In this document: positions 372 through 15,218 of the stretch, piece after piece
How positions within the stretch are numbered: position 1 is the stretch's first letter
Layout: each line of letters begins with the position of its first letter
NCBI GenBank assembly: GCA_013115125.1
Contig: JABANN010000343.1
Span: 1-37,225, forward strand
Length of the DNA stretch: 37,225 nucleotides
DNA from: Perkinsus olseni
Lineage: Eukaryota
Direction of reading: 5' to 3'
Program-made: the position numbers and the translations under genes
Notes under the pieces: model-generated
What the model was told of the DNA's origin: nothing
The model's database searches: none
Seen by the model: only the letters and a program-made list of their open reading frames with translations

Positions 372-443
372 TGCACCGTCCGGGAATTGAACCCGGACCA
401 TCTGCTTGGAAGGCAGATATCCTAACCATTAGACCAAGGGTGG
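372..443 (-). tRNA. tRNA-Gly(TCC) whose 5' acceptor strand is replaced by the transposon terminus (possibly non-functional)
   Basis: Positions 8-73 are intact (TGGTCTAATGGTTAGGATA TCTGC-CTTCCAA-GCAGA ... CCGGG-TTCAATT-CCCGG ACGGTGCA). Positions 1-7 read CCACCCT instead of the GCACCGT required by the 3' strand, and they are continuous with the repeat also seen at 4490. Confidence 0.85.
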
Positions 444-785
444 GGGGGAAAAATCGAGAAAAGAGAGGGGGAAAAGAAGAAAAGGAGGAAAAGGGGGGAA
501 AGGAGAAGGAAAAAAGAGGGGAAAAGGAGGAAGAAGAAAGGAGGGAAAGAGAAGAAAAGAGAGAAAGAGAGAGAAGAGAAGAAGAAAGAAAAAAGCCCAG
601 AAGAGACAATGCGCAATGGGTGTTTCAGTGACGTCAGCTCGGCGCGTCAACTTTCAGGAGACAACGTGCGCAGTTGCGTTCAGAGTAGTGATTGATCTCG
701 CGACCTCGGGTTACGCGCGAACTTGACAGCGGAATATCCGCAACTATCCTACACAATATAATCCGTACACAGTAACACGATTTAT
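437..785. repeat. Direct repeat copy 1 (GA-rich tract plus ~190 bp unique part); transposon 3' terminal region
   Basis: Aligns by eye with 4490-4845, from AGGGTGGGGG..AAAAATCGAGA through TTGCGTTCAGAGTAGTGATTGATCTCGCGACCTC to GTAACACGATTTAT. Confidence 0.9.
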
Positions 786-1004
786 TACGGAGTACAAATA
801 TGGCACTACTGTCACAAACACAACCGAATCCCAGAATACATTCAACATTATCCATGCACAGCATTTTCAATCAGTGACAGCCACAGATTGCATCGGGTTT
901 CATCTGCAATTACCTATGACGCAGAGCGATGGACAACCGCACGCGATTTGGACACGAGAGATACTACCCACCAGATGCATTCAACTCCATTCATCTGCCG
1001 CCCG

Positions 1005-4000
1005 CTATGAATGGCGCTTCAAAGCTGGGCTGCAGAACCTGAGGGATTCTCTACGCGACTGGACCGGCACTGAAATCGAACTACTTTCAGATCCCTTCTT
1101 TGAGTATCGAGCCCGCTTCACCTCATTTCTGCGGCTCTTCTTCTCAGTGGCCCGCCTCTTCTTCAGAGTGATCAATTCTTGACGCCTGTCGTCAGTGAGA
1201 TTTTCCGCCAACGGACAATAGCAATTGGTGGAAGTTCTCGTCGCAGAAGGTCTCATGAGGATGAAGGACACCACTTTTCCCTATGATGCGGCTCTTGAAC
1301 GGCAGTTGACATAAGCCGCAACGCCGCTTGCCAGTTGTCGAGTCTTCCACCTTGACGTGGCGAGCGGCATCTTCCGCCTTTTTCTTCATTTCGACGAGGC
1401 TCGGATCAACCGGGGGCCTTGGATCCATAGGACAGCGACCAAACTTACTGCCATCGCTTTCGTGATCGTTGAAGCTTCGGTCGACCGTCAACGGCTTCGA
1501 ACAGAACTTGCAAATCCCCTTCACGGCTTTCACAGGGGGAATCGCAGGCTCCGGCCGCACACTAGAGGTTGACGGGACAATATCCTTGGCCGCCTCAGAT
1601 CTCTTTCTGAGCTCGCTGCAGAGGTCATCGCCAGTGACTGGCCTCGGCCCAGGTCCCAGAGGTAGACCTTCGGATCGAACCCGCGCTTGAGGCACCTCAT
1701 CAAACTGTGGAGCGGCTCCAGGTGTCAGGCTTGCATCCAGCTCCGCTATTGCTTCTGCCCCGCGCACAGTAGGGGGTACGAATGTGGCTCTACACGAGTT
1801 GAGTTGCTTCAGGAAGGTCTTTATGCAATCCAGAGACACAGGGTGATAGGGTAGAGGCTTTCTCCCCGTGAGCAGGGCGTCGTCGACCTCATCGAGAGTT
1901 TTGCGCAGATAGGTTCGATAGACGAACGTTGCACACCCACTACCACTCGGAGCTTCGCTGATTATGGCTCTTACGGTCCCTCGAACAAACTCCGACCATT
2001 TGCCCAATTTCACCGTGTGAGTGGTAGTATGCAAGCCTTTCAAGCGACAAAACTTGCGCTTGGGCTTACCTGCCTGCATCGCTGACCGGAAGGCAGCCTC
2101 CGTTCCCTCTACAGAGGGTAAATCCTCAGGGTCAGTCATTTCTACGTCTTCAAAATCGACTCCTTCCCCACCCGCGCTGCCTGCTGCTGCATCGAAGACG
2201 AGCTCCTCAGTTTCATCACGAGGCTCCTCGTCCCCGGACTCGTAGCCGTCAGGAATCTCACCCCTTTCCTCCAGCCACTCTTGGACGATCTCCTCGTAGC
2301 GTTGCGAGTTCAGCATAGTCAAGTACTCGTGTCCGAATGTTACACCCATCGAATTGAGTGTGATGTCCATCCCGTCGCACTGACTCAACTGTAACTGGGT
2401 AGCCTGATACTCGCTGGCGGATAGGGGGATGGGGATTTTGCTCAGTTGGCTGTCCGGATCAAGACGACTAAAGAGCCGGCGGTTCGCGAACACTGCCCTC
2501 CATAGTATCTTACAGTCGTAGACCGGACCCCCAGCTCGACTCACATGGCTGAGGTCGCGACGTAGGCAAGCATGCCGCGACTCATTGCGCGACGTGCCTC
2601 GGGTATGGCAGAGATTGCCGTGGGAGTCGGCCATGACCGGAGCGATGATCGTGCTATCAGAAGAACACGAGTTTCGAATATGCTTCTGGAGAGACTGATA
2701 CTGGCCCCAGAAGTTCGATGAGGCCCTGAATAGCGGAGCACCAACAGTTCCCATGAACGGTGCACCACTGGACGGATCTGCTTGGGACGCATCCGCCGCC
2801 GAGCGTCCCTCCTCGTCGAGCTCCTAGAAACATTTCACGACGGCGGCTACCCGCCGGGAGAGCTCCTCAGCTCCTGGAACCCGCCGCCTTACGTTCTGGC
2901 GGATTTCCGTCTTGGACGGAGCGCCTACAAGGCCAGCCGCCGCTCGCTTGGCCCTCAACTGAGCCATGTCCTCGGCAGAATCTTGGTAAAAAGCTCTGCT
3001 CAACTGGACTGCGAACATGGTGTGGCGAACATGATTCGGGTCCGTCGCTCTCAAAAGGCGAAAAATGCCATGCAGAGGATCTACTTTGAGCTCCAGCGAC
3101 GTGACCTGGAGAGCCTCAATGAGCTGTCCGTGAGCGCGTGAAGACTCCTCATTACAGCACAGGTAGTCGGTGAAGATCACCAAGTGGTCCGGTACATGCC
3201 CTCGGAGCTCACGTAATGCGGGTAGAAGACCAGCCAGAGAGACGTCCGGAACTGCCACGGTGTTCAGGATGACTCCAGCATCGCCGATCACTACGGCTAC
3301 GTATCCTTGTTTATTCGAGGTCAGACGCTTCGCCGTAGATCTCGTAAAATCCAACGAGATCGACTGAACCACGGTATACGAAGCCAGCTCTCGGCAAAGG
3401 ACTGATCTATGCCTTGAGAGGTCGCGTATAACAGCAGTACGGGGCATGGAGTGACTGACGTGAACTGATGGCGAGGGAACTGCCTCAGTAGGAGTCATGT
3501 CCCAAATAGATCGTGCCTCCTTTGACAGTTGGTGGAGGAGGGATCCTGGCCGGCACTTGTCCCTTACGACACAGAAGAGCGCCCGCCGTCTCTGCAAGGC
3601 CTCCTGCTCTTCCCCTGCCAGGTTTTCAAGTTCTCGACCGATATGCGATCCGTTGCGCAGCCTCCTTATCACTGTCATACTGACCGCAATCTGTTTGCCC
3701 ACGATCATACAACTCTCCAGAGACTGCCTCACTGACGACGGCAGGCTATCGATAAAACGATAATCTAGGGCCGAGAAGCAGCTTTTGCACTCCGGGTTGC
3801 GACACGACCTCCTGGTCGACACCAAACGGGCGGGCCACCCATTCAATCCTACCACATGCTTCACAGGAAGCGATTCCTCGACCGAACTTATTGCAATGCT
3901 CTTACAGGAAGGGCAGGACCCCCCGAAGGGGTGCCACACGTATAGAGACGAGCCTCGAAGCCGAGGCAGGACGTTCTCTGTTGGGCAGGTCGTGATGCTC

Positions 4001-4481
4001 TCCAGAGGCGGTAGGCAGCACTGGTATAGCCCTGGAACGCTGTTGTCCCCTTCTCGGAGCTCTTTTCCAAGAAGGCGTTCCAAATCGGAAAGGGTCTTCG
4101 GAGTGCATCGAAAGTCGCGATATGAAGAACTAGGCGCCTCATTCTCCGGATTCGTCCTCCCTCCGCTACTAGAACTCGCCTCACAAGCCGTTCCACTGGG
4201 TGCAGTAGTAGGTTGCTGCGACGCAGTAGCCGATTTGGCCGCAGAACTGGGTGGGTTGGTAGGGCCCTCAGCAGCCTTATTTCCGAACCACTTCAGTCCT
4301 TTCTGACGAGATTCCTGCTCGCGTGAGCGGATTATTTCATCTCTGATCTTTTTCACAGTAGCTTCGGGTAAACGACCTAGCGGAGGTTATCGATCCCGCG
4401 ACTCCCAAACACCCCTGTATCACCTGATCTTCCACTGCTTGAGTACGGATCGGCGCGCCGTGGATAAGCCAAACTGACCAT
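1005..4481 (-). pseudogene. Dada-like DDE transposase (~1080 codons) with an in-frame TAG at 2826-2824 and a likely frameshift near 1235
   Basis: ORFs 2824..4356 and 1192..2754 are in the same frame, separated by one TAG plus 23 sense codons. Candidate exon 1 is 4481-4424 (ATG GTC AGT...), followed by a 47-nt GT-AG intron 4423-4377 that joins in frame. C-terminal CxxC..H..CP fingers; the second finger's 'CYCP' lies in the shifted frame 1005..1274. Confidence 0.75.
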
Positions 4482-4489
4482 CTGACCAC

Positions 4490-4845
4490 AGGGTGGGGGA
4501 AAAATCGAGAAAAAAAGAGAGGTGGGAAAGAAGAAAAAGACGAAAAGAGGGGAAAGGAGAAGGGAAAAAACAGGAAAAGGAGGAAGAAAGGAAGGAAGGA
4601 AGAAAGGAGGGAAAGAGAAGAAAAGAGAGAAAAAAGAAGAAGAAAGAAAAAAGCCAAGAAGAGACCATGCGCTGGGGTGTTTCAGCTCGACGCGTCAACT
4701 TTCAGAAGACACCGTGCGCGATTGCGTTCAGAGTAGTGATTGATCTCGCGACCTCAAGCTACGCGCTGGAACTTGACAACGCAATTTCCGCAACTATCCT
4801 ACCCTCAGTCGAGCACCTAGAATCCGTACGCGTAACACGATTTAT
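4490..4845. repeat. Direct repeat copy 2 (diverged): either the 3' end of a second tandem Dada copy or a 5' terminal repeat
   Basis: Same orientation and colinear with 437-785, with many substitutions and indels. Similarity stops at ~4845. Confidence 0.9.
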
Positions 4846-5543
4846 AACTGTGAATTGATGCTCGACTGCTCAACAGGAGTACTCATGTAGGAAAGCGGGG
4901 TACTGAGACCGTAACCGGAAAGACGCTCTTTCCATCGGTGAGCTGCAATAAATCGGAAGATTAATAGTTGAAGTACTTACCCAATAAAAATTTGGATTTC
5001 CCCCCCCCCCGGATTTTAAGCCGTGTATTCCTAAATTATTCGGCACATATTTCGAGGGACCCTCCGAGATCTCGGCACCCACTGAGAGTTGTGGTCTGAA
5101 ACTTTGGCATTATACTCGGTAGGGTACTAGAAGGTATCTCTATACAATTCGTTTCGCAACTCGTACCAGTTGGAGCTTGCGGCGAGAAAAACACGATACT
5201 CCAAATTCATTTGGAGGATTGTAGAGGATTGATTCTTTCCTTTGTAAGATTTCCGAAAGGAATGAAGGGAAAAGATTGAGAAAATCGAGGGAAATTGGAA
5301 AAAATAAGGAAATAATCTGCGGAAATAGCACTATACACAGGTTGAAGGACAAGATAAAAGTACTGCTAAAGCGAGTCCTTAACCTTCACCACATTGCCCC
5401 TCGCTAAGATGAACCTATATAAAGTTCATGGCGAACAATCCAGGCAGGAATCATGACTTGACCATAACTCAACTCAATGCCTCCTTCGACACTGAGCAAC
5501 ACTTGCGGGTATGCGCTTCAGTGGTTATTCTCCGAATTGTAGT

Positions 5544-8500
5544 CTACCTAGTCATTGTTTGCTTCTTGAGGAGGGACGAGGTCTTCCAAGCCCCAATATA
5601 CAATGCGATCTTGCCAACGGCGTGAACGCTTCGATTCATCTTCCTATCCGGCTCGGCTTCAACCGATTCAACCGAGTTGGTTGCCGCTGATACACTCACC
5701 TCCAGCTTTTTTATCCATCCGAGCGCTCCCATTGCAAGCCTTGAGGCCTTTGAATGCGCGTCGTCTAGAGCCTCCTTGCGGTTCTTAAGAACCATTTTGT
5801 GCGCTGCAGTGCGATATCTGCGCAGAAAACCATTCTGTTCAGGACCCTTGGTTACCGTCCTATACCCTACGAGTGAACCGCTCGCTGGTCGACGGTTTCG
5901 AGAGTAGGCAAAGAGAAATCGTCTCCCGTCGAACCTTCAATACCTGTCATTCACGGAACATTGTATTCCATTATGGAATTCTCATGGCTGAACAGATATG
6001 CGGAGTATAGACTACCATCCGTCCCATCACCCTCCGTGTAACACCACCGATCTATTTCGGGCATCATCTGTGTCATGTCGACTCCTTCCCACACTCTCAA
6101 GGGTAGCGACCTAACGAACAAGCTCATTCCAAAACCAGCTCGATTCGGTGATACACGATGCTGTTACTCTCCAGACTGATCGATTGGGTCGACTTCTCCA
6201 GAGCTATGTCGACGCAGGAGTCTCTTCAGGGACATGCGCTTTGGCATCTCTCCAGTGAAGCCTGAACTTACGAACTGAAGACGTCGAGTCAGACAACGTC
6301 CCGGGTGCGCCGCACCCCTGAAGCTTGAAGGCATACCATCGGCATCATGTCCATCCGGGATTCGTTCAGCTCACCCGAAATGATCTCGAAGAGTTCTCCC
6401 CATGGCACCATGTCCAGGTATTTAATCACGCAATCAAAAGTTGAGTCGAGAATCTCGCAAGTGGCAACGCCTCTCTCAACCAGCACTTGAAACAATCGGA
6501 CTCGCGCAGCATACAATGCCTGTAAAATTGGATACGTAAAGCGCAATCGGCGTCCGCGAGGAATGTGCCACACACGTGAAAGCCTTTTAGAATGTTTACT
6601 ACGGACTTCGTCTTATGTTCGACAGTTCTGTAGTACACATAAGACGAAGTCTGTGGTGCACTTCTCTAGTTCTGTAGTACACATAAGACGAAGTCTNNNN
6701 NNNNNNNNNNNNNNNNNNNNNNNNNNNNNNNNNNNNNNNNNNNNNNNNNNNNNNNNNNNNNNNNNNNNNNNNNNNNNNNNNNNNNNNNNNNNNNNCATAA
6801 GACGAAGTCTGTGGTGCACTTCTCTAGTTCTGTAGTACACATAAGACGAAGTCTGTGGTGCACTTCTCTGTAGTGTCTTCGCAAGTATTCTCCAAAAGGC
6901 CCACCGAGTCACTCTCAAATCAACCACAGAATCATATCGAGCTCTACGCGCCTTAGAAAAGCTTTTCTCTAGGCAGCTTCACGTCGTGACTTGAGCGGTC
7001 ACAGCTGGTCACTCACACACCTTACCTTCGCGCAGTGTGTATGACGGACCTCTTCGCGCTTCTTGAGTGCCGCGAGCTGGAGCTCCGACTCCACATCTGG
7101 ACGGTCGACCCGGCTTATGCTCTCCAGTGTCTCAAAGTGCGCATCGTACCTAAGATGAAGGCAAAAAGATCGACTGCTCGCACTTCTCAAATCATGAAGA
7201 AGCCAAGTACTCTAGGCCCAGGATCCAGCCATGAGGCTCTCCCAGGGGGAGTGCCAGTAGGACCGAACAGAATATTACGCACATGGAATAACCCGATGGT
7301 AACCAAGACCGGCTAGTGGAAGAGGAGCATATTCTCTCTTAATAGGATAAATATACTCGGGCTGATAAACCACGGACACTTAGCTCCGTTGAAGAATAGA
7401 AAGTCACATTAAAAAAGGACACCTTTCTCAAAGGGAACAATAACTTTTGGCGAAAGTTCCGCCACGTTTCGCCGCGAAACGTACTTCTTGCTCGATGCAT
7501 CGCACGCCGACGAACATCGGTCAAGACTTGTCTGTATTTCTGCTTCGTATCGCGTCACAGCCTCCTTCACTCTGAAGCGGAAGTTACATTGATGACTCTG
7601 GCAAGAATGAGAGCCCCCACATCTCGTTGAAGATGACTTGACTGGCCTTAGGAATGATGCTGTCTCTCAGTCTCGAACAAATACCCTTCAACTTCCCAAG
7701 GCTCTCTGAGCGAAGTTTTCCACCAGAATCGAGTACCTTAGAAACAAACAGCAGCAATGACCGCACGCTCTGAAACGCGAGGCTTCGCACCCCACTCGAC
7801 CTACTGAGTCCGTGAAGGCCTGGAGATAGTGTGGGAGATTTCCTCCGATTTTCTGCTTAGCGGTGGCTACCTCATCTTCGATGGCCGTTTGATACCTGGT
7901 ATATAGTAAAAACCGCTGTTCGAGGTGAACAGAAAAGAAGCAGCGACACGCAGTAACAGCCCCTCCGCACGGCTTCAATGTGTCCGACTTCAGCGGACCC
8001 ATAACCGCAAGCAGCGAGTCTGATCGTATGGATGCCTCATCTACGTCATTAGCAGATTCAAATGTCCACGGGAGACGCTGCAGCACTCTACTCGAAGGGC
8101 ATGCTTTCGCATCATACCTGATTCTTCAATCGTTCCACACCTTCTGAGCCATATCGTTTCACCCACCTCTGTCTGTGTGCTGGCTTCACACCTTCTAGGT
8201 ATTGTATCAAAGTCACTACACAGGCTACCAGAATTGACTAAAAGGCAACCCAAAATAACGTATCATCGCAAGAGGATGTAGACGGCCGATAGACTCACCA
8301 GAGCTCCACGTATCTCCAGTTCCAGGCTCGGCGTCACTTTCACCAACACATGATCACGTGGACATCCGGCCGTCGGCCCCACCTGAAAATGCGACCTCGG
8401 CATAATCTATTAATCTCATATGGGAGCTCCACAGGGTCCGACTGACACCAAGCTTCCCGGCTAAGCAGACCTCTGCCTCCACGGCACTCCCTTGTTCATC

Positions 8501-11500: not shown

Positions 11501-14500
11501 TCGACATGAAGGCAGCTCGTCGAAACACAAAATAACCAACCGGCAATAGCTCAGTTGGTAGAGCGTCCGACTGTAGTGTTTGGTATCGGATGGTCCCTGG
11601 TTCGATTCCGGGTTGACGGACGTTTCGCCAACGCATTTCTTCACGAGTTGTTTGGTACAGTTATGGTCGTATGAGTCGATTCCTGGTTCTTCAACCTTGA
11701 TGAGGTCAGCGAGACCTCATTGGCTGCGTCTGCGCGTCATGTCACGGTTGGTCAGACTTTATTCCATTCTGCGCGTGGCGATCGCAGGTCCCACCGCCGA
11801 GGAGGATCTTCTCAAGTGGCAAAAGAATTCATAAGCAATAATACGCCCTGACGATCCTCTCTCACTCCAAAAGAGAGAGAACCCGATCATTCAAATCACA
11901 GTCAGAGATGAGGAGTCGGACTCGGCCCACTAGACGCCTCAGGCTCACCTCAAGTCCGAGGATATTCCCCACTACGCTCTTTTGAAGGTCGAAGAAGGTC
12001 TGAGACTCGACACTCCCCTCATCCAAGCCCTTGTAGGCTTCTCAAGTTTGCCATGACCTTGGCGTGCTTACCTCCACTGCCTTCGGATATTCCTCGTGGA
12101 TGTCTAGCATCTGCTTTGCGAAATCTTCTATTCCCGCAGCCATGTGGTCCAGATGGGCGTAAGCCTGATGGACAATCAACTCCAGCCGAAACCCGAAACT
12201 GGATACCAACGCGGCCGAGTGGTCGACGCTTCCAGTAACACTAAAAATCGCTTTCATTGCAGCGCACACGCGACGCGGTCGGCGCAAGCGGAACGTAGTT
12301 GAGCGTTTGTGCCGCAAGTGAATCGCTGCCATCGACCACTTCATTCAGACCTCCATAGTAGCTTTCTCCAGGTCAGGATCAATGTGGGCAGAGTCTCGGA
12401 TGCTCCTGCGGTACTCCTGCAGCTCCCCTTCATTAGCCTCACACTCCGCCTCATGCTCAGCCTGACTGCCACCCACCCTCGGACGATCTCAGGCTAACCG
12501 CTACCCTGTGCTTCCGCAACTTTTCATCGTGTTCTGCCACCATGCCCTGCTTCTGAGTCTTCATCTCTTCCAGAGCTGTTGACGCTTCAACCATGAGCGA
12601 TGCAACCCGAGAGCACCTGGATAAGCTCTCCACAGAATTCTCGAGAATGGCCAACCCGTGTGCCACCTTGTCCGCTGCTCTCCCTCTAGTTCAAACAGTT
12701 TCTCCTTGCTTTTCGAGACCATACAATCCAGCTGTGCGTAGCAATCATTGAGTTCGGACGAGACCGCGGCGTCGGCCACATCGGCCGCGGTTAAATGCTA
12801 ACAAAAACCCTTTCGAAGTGTTGCTGAACAAACAGAACCCTCATTTTCATGAGGAACCAAGGCAGCAGCAGAGCAGCATCGAAGGAGCGGCGCATATTCC
12901 CACCTCGCCCCAACTTGGTCGACAGTCGATCTGTTCGATCATAGCCACGAGTTGGTCTCTGAGCTCCCGCCCCACTTCCTCGATACGACACCGAATCCTG
13001 TCCATAGCCTCGCCTTGTACAGAATAGGTCTGCAACAGAGCGCAATGGTCATTCCATTATCACCGAGAAACGCAGCGCGCAACTGAACTCCGCTGTGAGC
13101 TGACGACGCCGTCGCTACCAAGTATCTTACCTTCTCAGCTTCATCCCCAAGTTCGATGAGAGATTCCAGAGCGGCCTGAGTTCTGGCACCAGTCAAATCG
13201 GACACGGCCAAATCTCGAATCTACCAGGGTACGAGTTCGAACAGATGAAGAATGAAGAGCCGTCACCTCTAAAAGGATATTTAATCGGCGCTGCAGCAGG
13301 TCGGTCTGACTTTCTTTAACGAAATCGAACACCTGAAATATTGCCTCTTCGAAAGATCTTATCGCTCCCACTCGAGCATTCACCCCAACGAGCTGTGGAG
13401 GGTCCTGGAACTCTGGGCCACGGAGCCTCTCCAATGCCTCCCTTATAGCCCGATCGTGGCGGCATGTGCGCCATGCATGTCGACCGCGCTCCCTGAAATT
13501 TGAAAGGGCTCAGCCACTGCCCTTTCCATCAGGCCCACGCACCATCTCTCAGTGAGGGAGACCTTTTCATCATTGCATCTGATCGTGAGGAGCTTCTGCA
13601 CCAACTCGACATGCTCTTTCCTGTTCTCCGCAAGGACACTGTTCGCCTCTGTTGTCAGTCCATGAATAATCCTGCCAATCACCGCTATGGAACGGATACA
13701 CGGGAAGAAGCTCGCTGATGGAGTGGCCGATATTGATGACATCTTACCGTTCCACACTGCCTTGATCAGCATGGGCAGCGAGCAATAGCTCCTCCGTCAG
13801 GGACCTCAGACGCTCATCTATGCTCCGCTTGCGCACAGCGCATTCGATATCCTAACGGCATGCGAGAAGGCGATCCGGAAGTAAGAAAATGTGCGGTGAC
13901 CAATGTGCGGCTTCCCGAGGGACAAGGCAGGCTCCAGTATCGGCTTATCATGGCCCAGTACTCCACAAGGCACGAGTATTGGCATGCGGCATGTTAGCTC
14001 AGATACATTTACTAGGACAGATGCGAAGCCAGATCCGCTCGAGGCCTTTGGGCCGTGGGTGAAGGCAATTATCCCATAACCAACAGATACTCAGACGATC
14101 TGAGTCAGATCGGACCTCCAGTGACTGGGCGAACTTATCAATCAGCTTTCGCCGATCCGCGATTGTGGACTCCACCATCTCCAAGACTTTGTCGATCCAC
14201 TCTATGCTCTTCGAGCCTGCAAGGGCCAATTCTCGAGGCCAATACCACAAGCATTCTCCTCCACTTAGGATAGCCTCCCCTTCATCGTCTCCCTCCTCTA
14301 TTTCCGTCACACGTAGCAACGCGGCGATTTCAGAGTCTTGCTGATCCAAGCAAGCGTTGAGCTCCTCCGACGCGACTTGGACCTGAGGAAGAGCTAATGC
14401 TTACCATATAGAGTTGCATTAAACTACTTTAGCGGCGCACTCATCCGCGAGAGCGGCAACATACTTGTGGTAGCCCTCCAGAGCCTCATCGTGCCGAGCC

Positions 14501-15146: not shown

Positions 15147-15218
15147 AGGTTCTATCGGGATTCGAACCCGAGTCGCTGGCTTCAAGTTCCTGAGTGCTAA
15201 CCGCTACACTATAGAACC
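15147..15218 (-). tRNA. tRNA-Gln(TTG)-like gene or pseudogene with a disrupted anticodon arm
   Basis: Minus strand GGTTCTATAGTGTAGCGGTTAGCACT CAGGA-ACTTGAA-GCCAG CGAC TCGGG-TTCGAAT-CCCGA TAGAACC T. Acceptor and T stems are perfect; the anticodon stem has two mismatches and the loop has A32/C33. Confidence 0.8.

Follow-up and report, generated by a model that had tools for sequence, protein, structure and literature searches.

A probable Dada-tG-type transposon remnant in a tRNA-Gly gene of Perkinsus olseni and the resemblance of its terminus to the displaced tRNA 5′ strand

Contig JABANN010000343.1 of the Perkinsus olseni assembly GCA_013115125.1 raises the question of what a site-specific transposon leaves behind in the gene that it occupies. 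In the stretch analyzed here (37,225 nucleotides (nt), positions 1 to 37,225 of the forward strand; hereafter the window), a transfer RNA (tRNA) gene for glycine, tRNA-Gly(TCC), lies on the minus strand at 372-443, and its first seven nucleotides appear to be the end of a mobile element. A first-pass annotation had described a Dada-like transposon that targets this gene, with a terminus that mimics the tRNA 5′ strand, may guide integration, and may leave a transcribable, near-repaired tRNA. The analysis indicates that 437-4454 on the minus strand is probably a dead, 5′-truncated Dada-tG-type transposon of P. olseni, situated between nt 7 and 8 of tRNA-Gly(TCC). The resemblance between its end and the displaced tRNA strand is read as the mark of a transposase that recognizes end and target alike, or as coincidence with a C-rich end motif of the clade, rather than as a demonstrated repair device.

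A Dada-type element at a tRNA-Gly gene

ARAGORN calls five tRNA genes in the window, all confirmed by Rfam, including a cluster at 88-443 that it reads as Leu-CAA, Met-CAT, and Gly-TCC. The tRNA-Gly(TCC), read from 443 to 372, is called by both ARAGORN and the Rfam tRNA model, with 57.9 bits compared with 58.5 and 59.3 for its neighbors. In the cmscan alignment, the D, anticodon, and T stems are fully standard, and just two pairs are non-standard, C1.C72 and C6.C67. The 5′ strand of the acceptor stem is CCACCCT and the 3′ strand is ACGGTGC, the complement of which is GCACCGT; CCACCCT matches GCACCGT at five of seven positions, giving five of seven acceptor pairs. Since CCACCCT pairs with five of seven bases in the 3′ acceptor strand, the gene is reported as complete by tRNA finders. 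The substitution of CCACCCT for GCACCGT, as described in the first-pass annotation, was thus confirmed by ARAGORN, by cmscan, and by the complement of the 3′ strand. The same annotation called the A and B boxes intact, which is correct insofar as nt 8-19 (TGGTCTAATGGT) and nt 52-62 (GGTTCAATTCC) are both present; that these are the A and B boxes is our assumption, based on the general consensus. The minimum-energy structure from RNAfold for the chimeric tRNA is a cloverleaf with an acceptor helix of only 4 base pairs (bp).

Dada elements are defined in the text of PMC3706591 by a DDE transposase in which a DxxH motif follows the second D, two zinc fingers (a CCCC one at the N-terminus and a CCHC one at the C-terminus), target duplications of 6-7 bp without terminal inverted repeats, and fixed insertion sites in small nuclear RNA or tRNA genes; the same text describes a distant kinship to IS256, MuDR, hAT, and P. 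One of them, Dada-tG_PMar, resides in tRNA-Gly-GGA of Perkinsus marinus, of which there are 116 genes (text of PMC3706591), and its duplication covers tRNA nt 8-13, TAGTCT, followed by AA (text of PMC8869645). A Dada in tRNA-Gly is therefore already published for the sister species. In P. olseni, the element end adjoins nt 8 of tRNA-Gly(TCC), at the boundary between acceptor stem and D arm, and the tRNA part opens with TGGTCT followed by AA, compared with the published TAGTCT and AA (text of PMC8869645), so the proposed insertion at the Dada site holds. This fixed position in a multicopy small-RNA gene is seen at two related junctions, those of the copies A and B described below.

The transposase gene supports the same assignment. 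Between the two junctions, the minus strand holds a single long frame with one TAG inside. An exhaustive phmmer search of proteins, with the TAG read as X, gave 94 relatives at an expectation value (E) of 0.001 or less, 10 of them at E≤1e-30. The top match, P0001, is a 100% identical “hypothetical protein” of P. olseni, and P0095, a P. olseni “hypothetical protein” from the same cluster, is uninterrupted at 1138 amino acids and 98% identical over 1052 aligned residues. The 28 of 94 relatives that were looked up comprise 10 proteins from P. olseni, two from P. chesapeaki, two from diatoms, and 14 metagenome or Logan proteins that are unnamed or “hypothetical”. In a 22-sequence alignment of relatives (A2; residue numbers follow P0095), the columns of D377, D467, H470, and E633 are invariant or nearly so, and that of D438 is nearly invariant. 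The DDE triad and D467xxH470, the DxxH after the second D, are all kept in the window copy, as are the CCCC zinc-finger cysteines C189, C192, C226, and C231, which are nearly invariant in A2, and a C-terminal CxxC-x12-H-x9-C motif that starts at residue 990 of P0095.

Other sequence searches were less informative. A word-indexed protein search with the 510-residue open reading frame (ORF) gave no match, and one with the A2 profile recovered P0001 alone; Pfam found nothing in the two window ORFs at E≤0.1, a sequence-profile search of the PDB gave chance-level matches only (best E 0.46), and among viral contigs 40 pattern matches yielded no confirmed relative. The structural model from AlphaFold 2 (AF2) has a mean predicted local distance difference test (pLDDT) score of 69.5, with about 85-92 in the core. 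Its strands and helices follow each other in the RNase-H order, with an insertion ahead of the E that is helical throughout. The catalytic residues are placed on beta1, after beta4, after beta5, and on a later helix. Foldseek searches against the PDB ranked ISCth4 transposase chains first to fifth (E 2.7e-5 to 4.5e-4), with the P element transposase at rank 13, Hermes at rank 43, and many retroviral integrase cores between. These matches to a predicted model fit the published distant kinship to IS256, MuDR, hAT, and P. Together, the motifs, zinc fingers, fold, and target site bear out the earlier identification of a Dada-type DDE/DxxH transposon.

The suggested link to Pfam DUF6729 (PF20499), by comparison, did not hold up for the window protein. 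In the ESM Atlas, 19 of 30 matches were DUF6729 clusters, with Chordata the commonest phylum and a top score of 0.97, and the neighbors include a Basidiomycota cluster; these matches serve as a lead only. Among the 22 aligned relatives, nine match DUF6729 at E≤0.1, the best at E 1.7e-5, and the two printed scores of 24.6 and 19.6 bits fall below the curated cut-off of 27 bits. A full-text literature search returned no paper on DUF6729.

Two element ends and a broken gene

The 3′ end of the element, about 365 bp, occurs twice in the window. Copy A at 422-788 and copy B at 4474-4848 are 80.2% identical over 389 columns, and there is no third site elsewhere in the window. Copy A ends in CCCCCCCACCCT, followed by TGGTCTAATGGTTAG, which is tRNA nt 8-22. 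Copy B ends in CCCCCACCCT, followed by a G and then by TGGTCAGATGGTCAG, which agrees with tRNA nt 8-22 at 12 of 15 positions. CCACCCT can thus be assigned to the element, as it also ends this second, diverged copy at 4490-4496, and TGGTC comes after it in both cases, with the extra G between them in copy B. On the minus strand upstream of the tRNA, a long C/T-rich tract passes unbroken into GATTTTTCCCCCCC and then ACCCT. Copy A has a run of five T (T5, at 449-453) 6-10 nt upstream of tRNA nt 1, and such a run also precedes the terminus of copy B.

Past these 15 nt, the flank of copy B is not significantly tRNA-like, as 268 of 2000 shuffles score equally, and on that count its interpretation as a full tRNA remnant was rejected as unproven; the flank also has no Rfam match at E≤1. 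A search for an intact 5′ half-site, GCACCGT joined to TGGTCT, gave 13 matches with at most three mismatches compared with 9.4 expected, and none of them lies upstream of the element. Further along the plus strand, a purine-rich stretch at 5260-5320 with GAAAATCGAG is faintly similar to the start of the terminal tract (75% over 24 nt) and may be either a very old third remnant or just low-complexity sequence.

At the other side, the element is incomplete. The window copy has no counterpart of residues 1-25 of P0095, and homology starts at 4454. These residues belong to an N-terminal motif, MPxxxK..W....L, that is found in about half of the 22 aligned relatives, one of them from a diatom, and is encoded uninterrupted in the metagenome locus L001; its loss implies that copy A was truncated or deleted at its 5′ end. 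Position 4489, given in the first-pass annotation as the right boundary, is consequently not an element terminus. Because the first 25 codons are lacking and homology begins at 4454, the right side is a breakpoint against another partial copy. With its in-frame TAG, its frameshift, and its missing conserved motif, the window copy is dead as judged from its sequence, and the 98%-identical uninterrupted copy suggests that the family was recently active. The coordinates of all parts are collected in Table 1.

Table 1. Parts of the tRNA-Gly(TCC) gene, the element (copy A), and the adjoining copy B in the window
Positions	Strand	Feature	Basis or remark
372-436	-	Native part of tRNA-Gly(TCC), nt 8-73: D, anticodon, and T arms, 3′ acceptor strand ACGGTGC, discriminator A	ARAGORN, cmscan
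437-443	-	CCACCCT, final 7 nt of the element, in place of tRNA nt 1-7 (expected GCACCGT)	
444-600	-	Pyrimidine-rich, low-complexity 3′ tract of the element, holding the T5 run 449-453	Similar CT-rich tracts end relatives
601-1076	-	3′ subterminal region past the transposase coding sequence; 437 to about 797 common to copy B	
1077-4454	-	Broken Dada-type transposase gene, first 25 codons missing	tblastn
1220-1222	-	Frameshift cutting off the last ~50 codons from the main frame	Frame switch in tblastn alignment
2581-3351	-	Catalytic core: D 3349-3351, D 3166-3168, DxxH 3070-3081, E 2581-2583	A2
2824-2826	-	In-frame TAG where P0095 has W552	
3787-3915	-	N-terminal CCCC codons: 3913-3915, 3904-3906, 3802-3804, 3787-3789	A2
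4455-4489	-	Junction segment from the copy B terminus to 5′-truncated copy A: G and TGGTCAGATGGTCAG, then ~19 nt of unclear origin	
4490-4848	-	Copy B, solitary older 3′-terminal fragment of a related Dada element, ending CCCCCACCCT	Similarity stops at ~4848

Several points weigh against the assignment to a Dada-tG-type insertion. DUF6729 has no match in the window ORFs (E≤0.1) or in P0095 (E≤1), and no target duplication can be read in the window copy because its 5′ end is missing. The placement in Dada is built on motifs, the fold, the target site, and the host genus. The public gene models of P0001 and P0095 splice out a GT..AG stretch of ~46 nt near the 5′ end of the gene, at about 4378-4423 on the minus strand, which conflicts with the statement in the text of PMC3706591 that Perkinsus Dada elements are intronless. 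Copies A and B may also stem from one duplicated junction and not from two insertions, in which case the shared CCACCCT counts once. As a separate observation on the gene models, that of P0001 also drops the 23 codons surrounding the TAG, as if the annotation had been made to bypass the stop.

Other features of the window include the tRNA at 11540-11620 on the plus strand, which has an 11-nt insertion after the start of the anticodon loop (CUGUA...) and is probably an intron-bearing tRNA-Tyr(GTA); it has one acceptor mismatch, G4.A69, its nt 8-13 are TAGCTC, and the sequence upstream is without element-like sequence. The tRNA-Gln(TTG) at 15147-15218 on the minus strand scores 47.8 bits, has two non-standard pairs in the anticodon stem, and is possibly a decaying copy. 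At 6594-6859, a ~59-nt repeat (CATAAGACGAAGTCT...) occurs in direct and inverted copies that flank an assembly gap of 99 N (6697-6795).

Is the terminus a tRNA mimic?

Whether CCACCCT resembles GCACCGT beyond chance depends on the measure. Identity at five or more of seven positions is reached by 1.29% of all 7-mers and by 929 of 74,228 window 7-mers, and pairing at five or more positions, with G-U allowed, by 8.1-8.2% of 7-mers. In the element's own CT-rich tail, none of 151 7-mers reaches 5/7 identity to GCACCGT. The resemblance of end and target is therefore unusual without being compelling, and it was singled out post hoc.

Relatives in metagenome contigs offer a second line of comparison. 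A scan with a 10-sequence profile gave 159 pattern matches, of which 49 were confirmed, in 46 loci. ARAGORN found tRNAs in three of the 46 (L001, L002, and L004), adjoining the element in L001 and L002 only. Rfam gave no match at E≤0.1 in 12 short relative contigs (59,620 bases) and, at gathering score, four tRNAs only in 10 relative loci. L001 and L002 are one sequence in two records, in which a tRNA-Lys(TTT) faces the 5′ side of the transposase gene at 254 nt from the ATG. In L001, this tRNA occupies 6758-6830, runs opposite to the gene for a Dada-like transposase of 1427 amino acids, and has a disrupted acceptor stem. Its element-side flank is CCCCCGAGTA, where RCCCGAT is called for, and CCCGA is common to the two only after a 2-nt shift. 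It also has a bad anticodon-stem pair and scores 48.2 bits compared with 66.2 for the neighboring tRNA, a pattern that suggests decay rather than maintenance. The nt 8-13 of this tRNA-Lys are TAGCTC, a site published for several Dada families.

The largest group, the WLWD01 family, has 31 loci and a multicopy element of about 10.7 kilobases. No Rfam RNA adjoins it in the seven loci scanned, and its 6-bp target duplications vary (GAGGTA in L043, ATTCCA in L022). Its 3′ end, read from 14 junctions, is a CT-rich tract ending in ...TATACCCCAGCCC, and the tract of another relative, L045, ends with ACCCCCCAGCC. A C-rich 3′ end of the form CCCCA(G)CC(C) thus seems, from these sequences, to be common in the clade whatever the target. 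As C-rich 3′ ends occur in relatives outside tRNA genes, the case that CCACCCT evolved to copy tRNA-Gly is weaker.

Six of the 14 WLWD01 right ends are followed by another copy within 6 nt; in four cases a full left end comes after 5-6 nt, in two a 5′-truncated copy within 5 nt. The two truncated neighbors lack about 110 nt of the left end. Head-to-tail arrays occur in L012 (for example at L012:9213-9240), L020, L022, L024, and L019, and the spacer of the L022 array is the 6-bp target duplication ATTCCA. By analogy, these arrays and the ISCth4-like fold recall the tandem or circle junctions of copy-out/paste-in transposition. A relative in L004, 43% identical to P0026, has 245-bp inverted repeats at 6558-6802 and 12331-12575 that are 85% identical, unlike published Dada, which are without terminal inverted repeats. 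For this element (L004/L003/L007), tRNA-Asn genes lie 2 kilobases away and do not adjoin it.

Among the alternative explanations, the one that survives best is adaptive mimicry, in which the 3′ terminus was selected to stand in for the 5′ acceptor strand of the tRNA. The occupied gene would then still give an RNA polymerase III (Pol III) transcript that RNase P could process to a usable tRNA-Gly, and insertion would be nearly harmless. Such selection would account for the five acceptor pairs kept in an otherwise flawless cloverleaf, for an Rfam score of 57.9 bits close to the neighbors' 58.5 and 59.3, and for the conservation of CCACCCT between two copies that are 80% identical. The 5/7 identity is an event of 1.3% that none of the 151 tail 7-mers reaches, and the element-side flank of the L001 tRNA-Lys holds CCCGA, part of the expected RCCCGAU. 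Against this, 8% of random 7-mers would give 5/7 pairing with G-U, the minimum-energy acceptor helix has just 4 bp, and the tRNA-like sequence past copy B does not go on as a tRNA. The L001 match needs the 2-nt shift in a tRNA that, with its bad anticodon-stem pair and 48.2 versus 66.2 bits, looks like decay. Relatives outside tRNA genes end alike, with CCCCAGCCC in the WLWD01 family and CCCCCCAGCC in L045. Runs of T act as Pol III terminators, and if they stop Pol III here, the T5 run 6-10 nt upstream of nt 1 would permit only a 5-nt leader. Adaptive mimicry is accordingly considered unlikely; the resemblance is weak, concerns a single case, and can plausibly be explained without adaptation.

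Of the earlier claim that the terminus mimics the tRNA 5′ strand, the 5/7 resemblance is real; that it goes beyond chance is supported weakly, and C-rich ends seem common in the clade. The accompanying idea that similarity guides integration is a known one applied to a new family, as a motif common to end and target has already been proposed to serve target recognition in Dada-U6 and Dada-U1 (text of PMC3706591). No passage on a reconstituted or near-repaired tRNA occurs in the text of PMC3706591 or PMC8869645, figures and supplements excluded. Of 11 public sequencing runs listed for the stretch, nine contain it at least in part, and no RNA run is among these.

A second alternative, rated as very improbable, is that CCACCCT belongs to the tRNA itself, as a 5′ strand with two substitutions, and that the element lies just upstream of nt 1. 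Two other tRNAs of the window, at 11540-11620 (G4.A69) and the tRNA-Gln at 15147-15218, have bad pairs without an adjoining element, and the 7-mer may be common to copies A and B because both descend from a single duplicated junction. The published site of Dada-tG_PMar, however, is nt 8-13 (text of PMC8869645), in both copies CCACCC directly continues the C run of the tail and is similar to how relatives end, and copy B has an extra G between the 7-mer and TGGTC. The least probable alternative, that the two ~365-bp direct repeats are the ends of a single long terminal repeat (LTR)-like element at 437-4848, draws on their shared orientation on either side of the coding region and was rejected, as the repeats are 80% identical compared with 98% protein identity of the coding region to another copy, the protein has a DDE transposase fold and no reverse-transcriptase or other Pfam match, the conserved N-terminus is missing where the upstream repeat abuts the truncation, and the left and right ends of the multicopy WLWD01 relatives differ.

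Proposed history and comparison with known systems

A Dada-tG-type insertion with shared recognition or coincidence at its end, the preferred reading, leads to the following model. Based on the published family and the predicted fold, a DDE transposase with an IS256-like RNase-H fold would recognize the boundary between acceptor stem and D arm of a multicopy tRNA gene, make a 6-bp staggered cut at tRNA nt 8-13, and join the element there. Redundant tRNA genes would serve as a safe harbor, and insertion would not disturb nt 8-73, in which the stretches readable as internal promoter boxes lie. In the window, a Dada-tG-type element would have entered a tRNA-Gly(TCC) gene at nt 8-13. The family probably stayed active, since a 98%-identical copy with an open frame exists, and the window copy would later have gained its nonsense codon and frameshift and lost its 5′ end. 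What remains of that side would now abut the 3′ end of an older copy and a scrap of that copy's target.

A more far-reaching idea, for which the odds are long, is that Dada junctions are built to look like uncut target, with CCACCCT copying nt 1-7 and the 5′ end, perhaps GATGGTCAG, copying nt 14-22; GATGGTCAG lies after copy B. If true, an IS256-like circle or tandem junction, consisting of an end, a 6-bp spacer, and an end, would imitate an intact tRNA-Gly, and each insertion would recreate a landing site, so that head-to-tail arrays would be accounted for. A usable tRNA would still come from the occupied gene, and the element would be a DNA transposon of a eukaryote whose target heals and renews itself. 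Should the resemblance prove general across the five published Perkinsus Dada families (tL, tIA, tIB, tY, and tG), it would show how a DDE transposase reads a 20-nt target, a matter that bears on tools for targeted integration.

The probable insertion has consequences of its own. The tRNA-Gly-specific Dada family would be extended from P. marinus to P. olseni. As occupied tRNA genes score as complete, tRNA gene counts in Perkinsus may include chimeras. Use of such elements as tools for targeted integration was already proposed by the 2013 authors (text of PMC3706591).

The closest known system is Dada-tG_PMar, which, compared by its published description, shares the host genus, a tRNA-Gly-GGA target (anticodon TCC), the site at nt 8-13 followed by AA, a DDE transposase with DxxH, and two zinc fingers. 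It differs in that the host here is P. olseni, the site is TGGTCT rather than TAGTCT (nt 9), and the window copy is truncated and mutated. Dada-U6 and Dada-U1 show the same kind of resemblance as that between CCACCCT with TGGTCT and GCACCGT with TGGTCT, although their motif is a sub-terminal inverted repeat of 7-9 bp at both element ends, and tandem Dada-U1 copies have been described (text of PMC3706591). Here, the resemblance is read at the 3′ end, the one end available, and is a 5/7 match; its position on the acceptor strand means that a tRNA-like gene results.

ISCth4 (PDB 6xgw, 6xg8, and 6xgx) is the best fold match, taking the top five Foldseek ranks with probabilities of 0.99-1.00, yet with 10-13% sequence identity and TM-scores of 0.38-0.48 on target length. 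It is a bacterial protein of about 400 amino acids without Dada-type zinc fingers, and the match is silent on target choice. We take ISCth4 to be a member of the IS256 family with a copy-out/paste-in mechanism. Prokaryotic integrative elements and phages also insert themselves into tRNA genes and make the gene whole again by carrying a copy of its end. Their enzymes are tyrosine or serine recombinases, and it is the 3′ part of the gene that they replace and restore exactly or nearly so. The P. olseni element resembles them in that a mobile element supplies a substitute for the displaced part of a tRNA and differs in that the enzyme is a DDE transposase, the part replaced is the 5′ strand, two of seven pairs are lost, and the tRNA function is putative.

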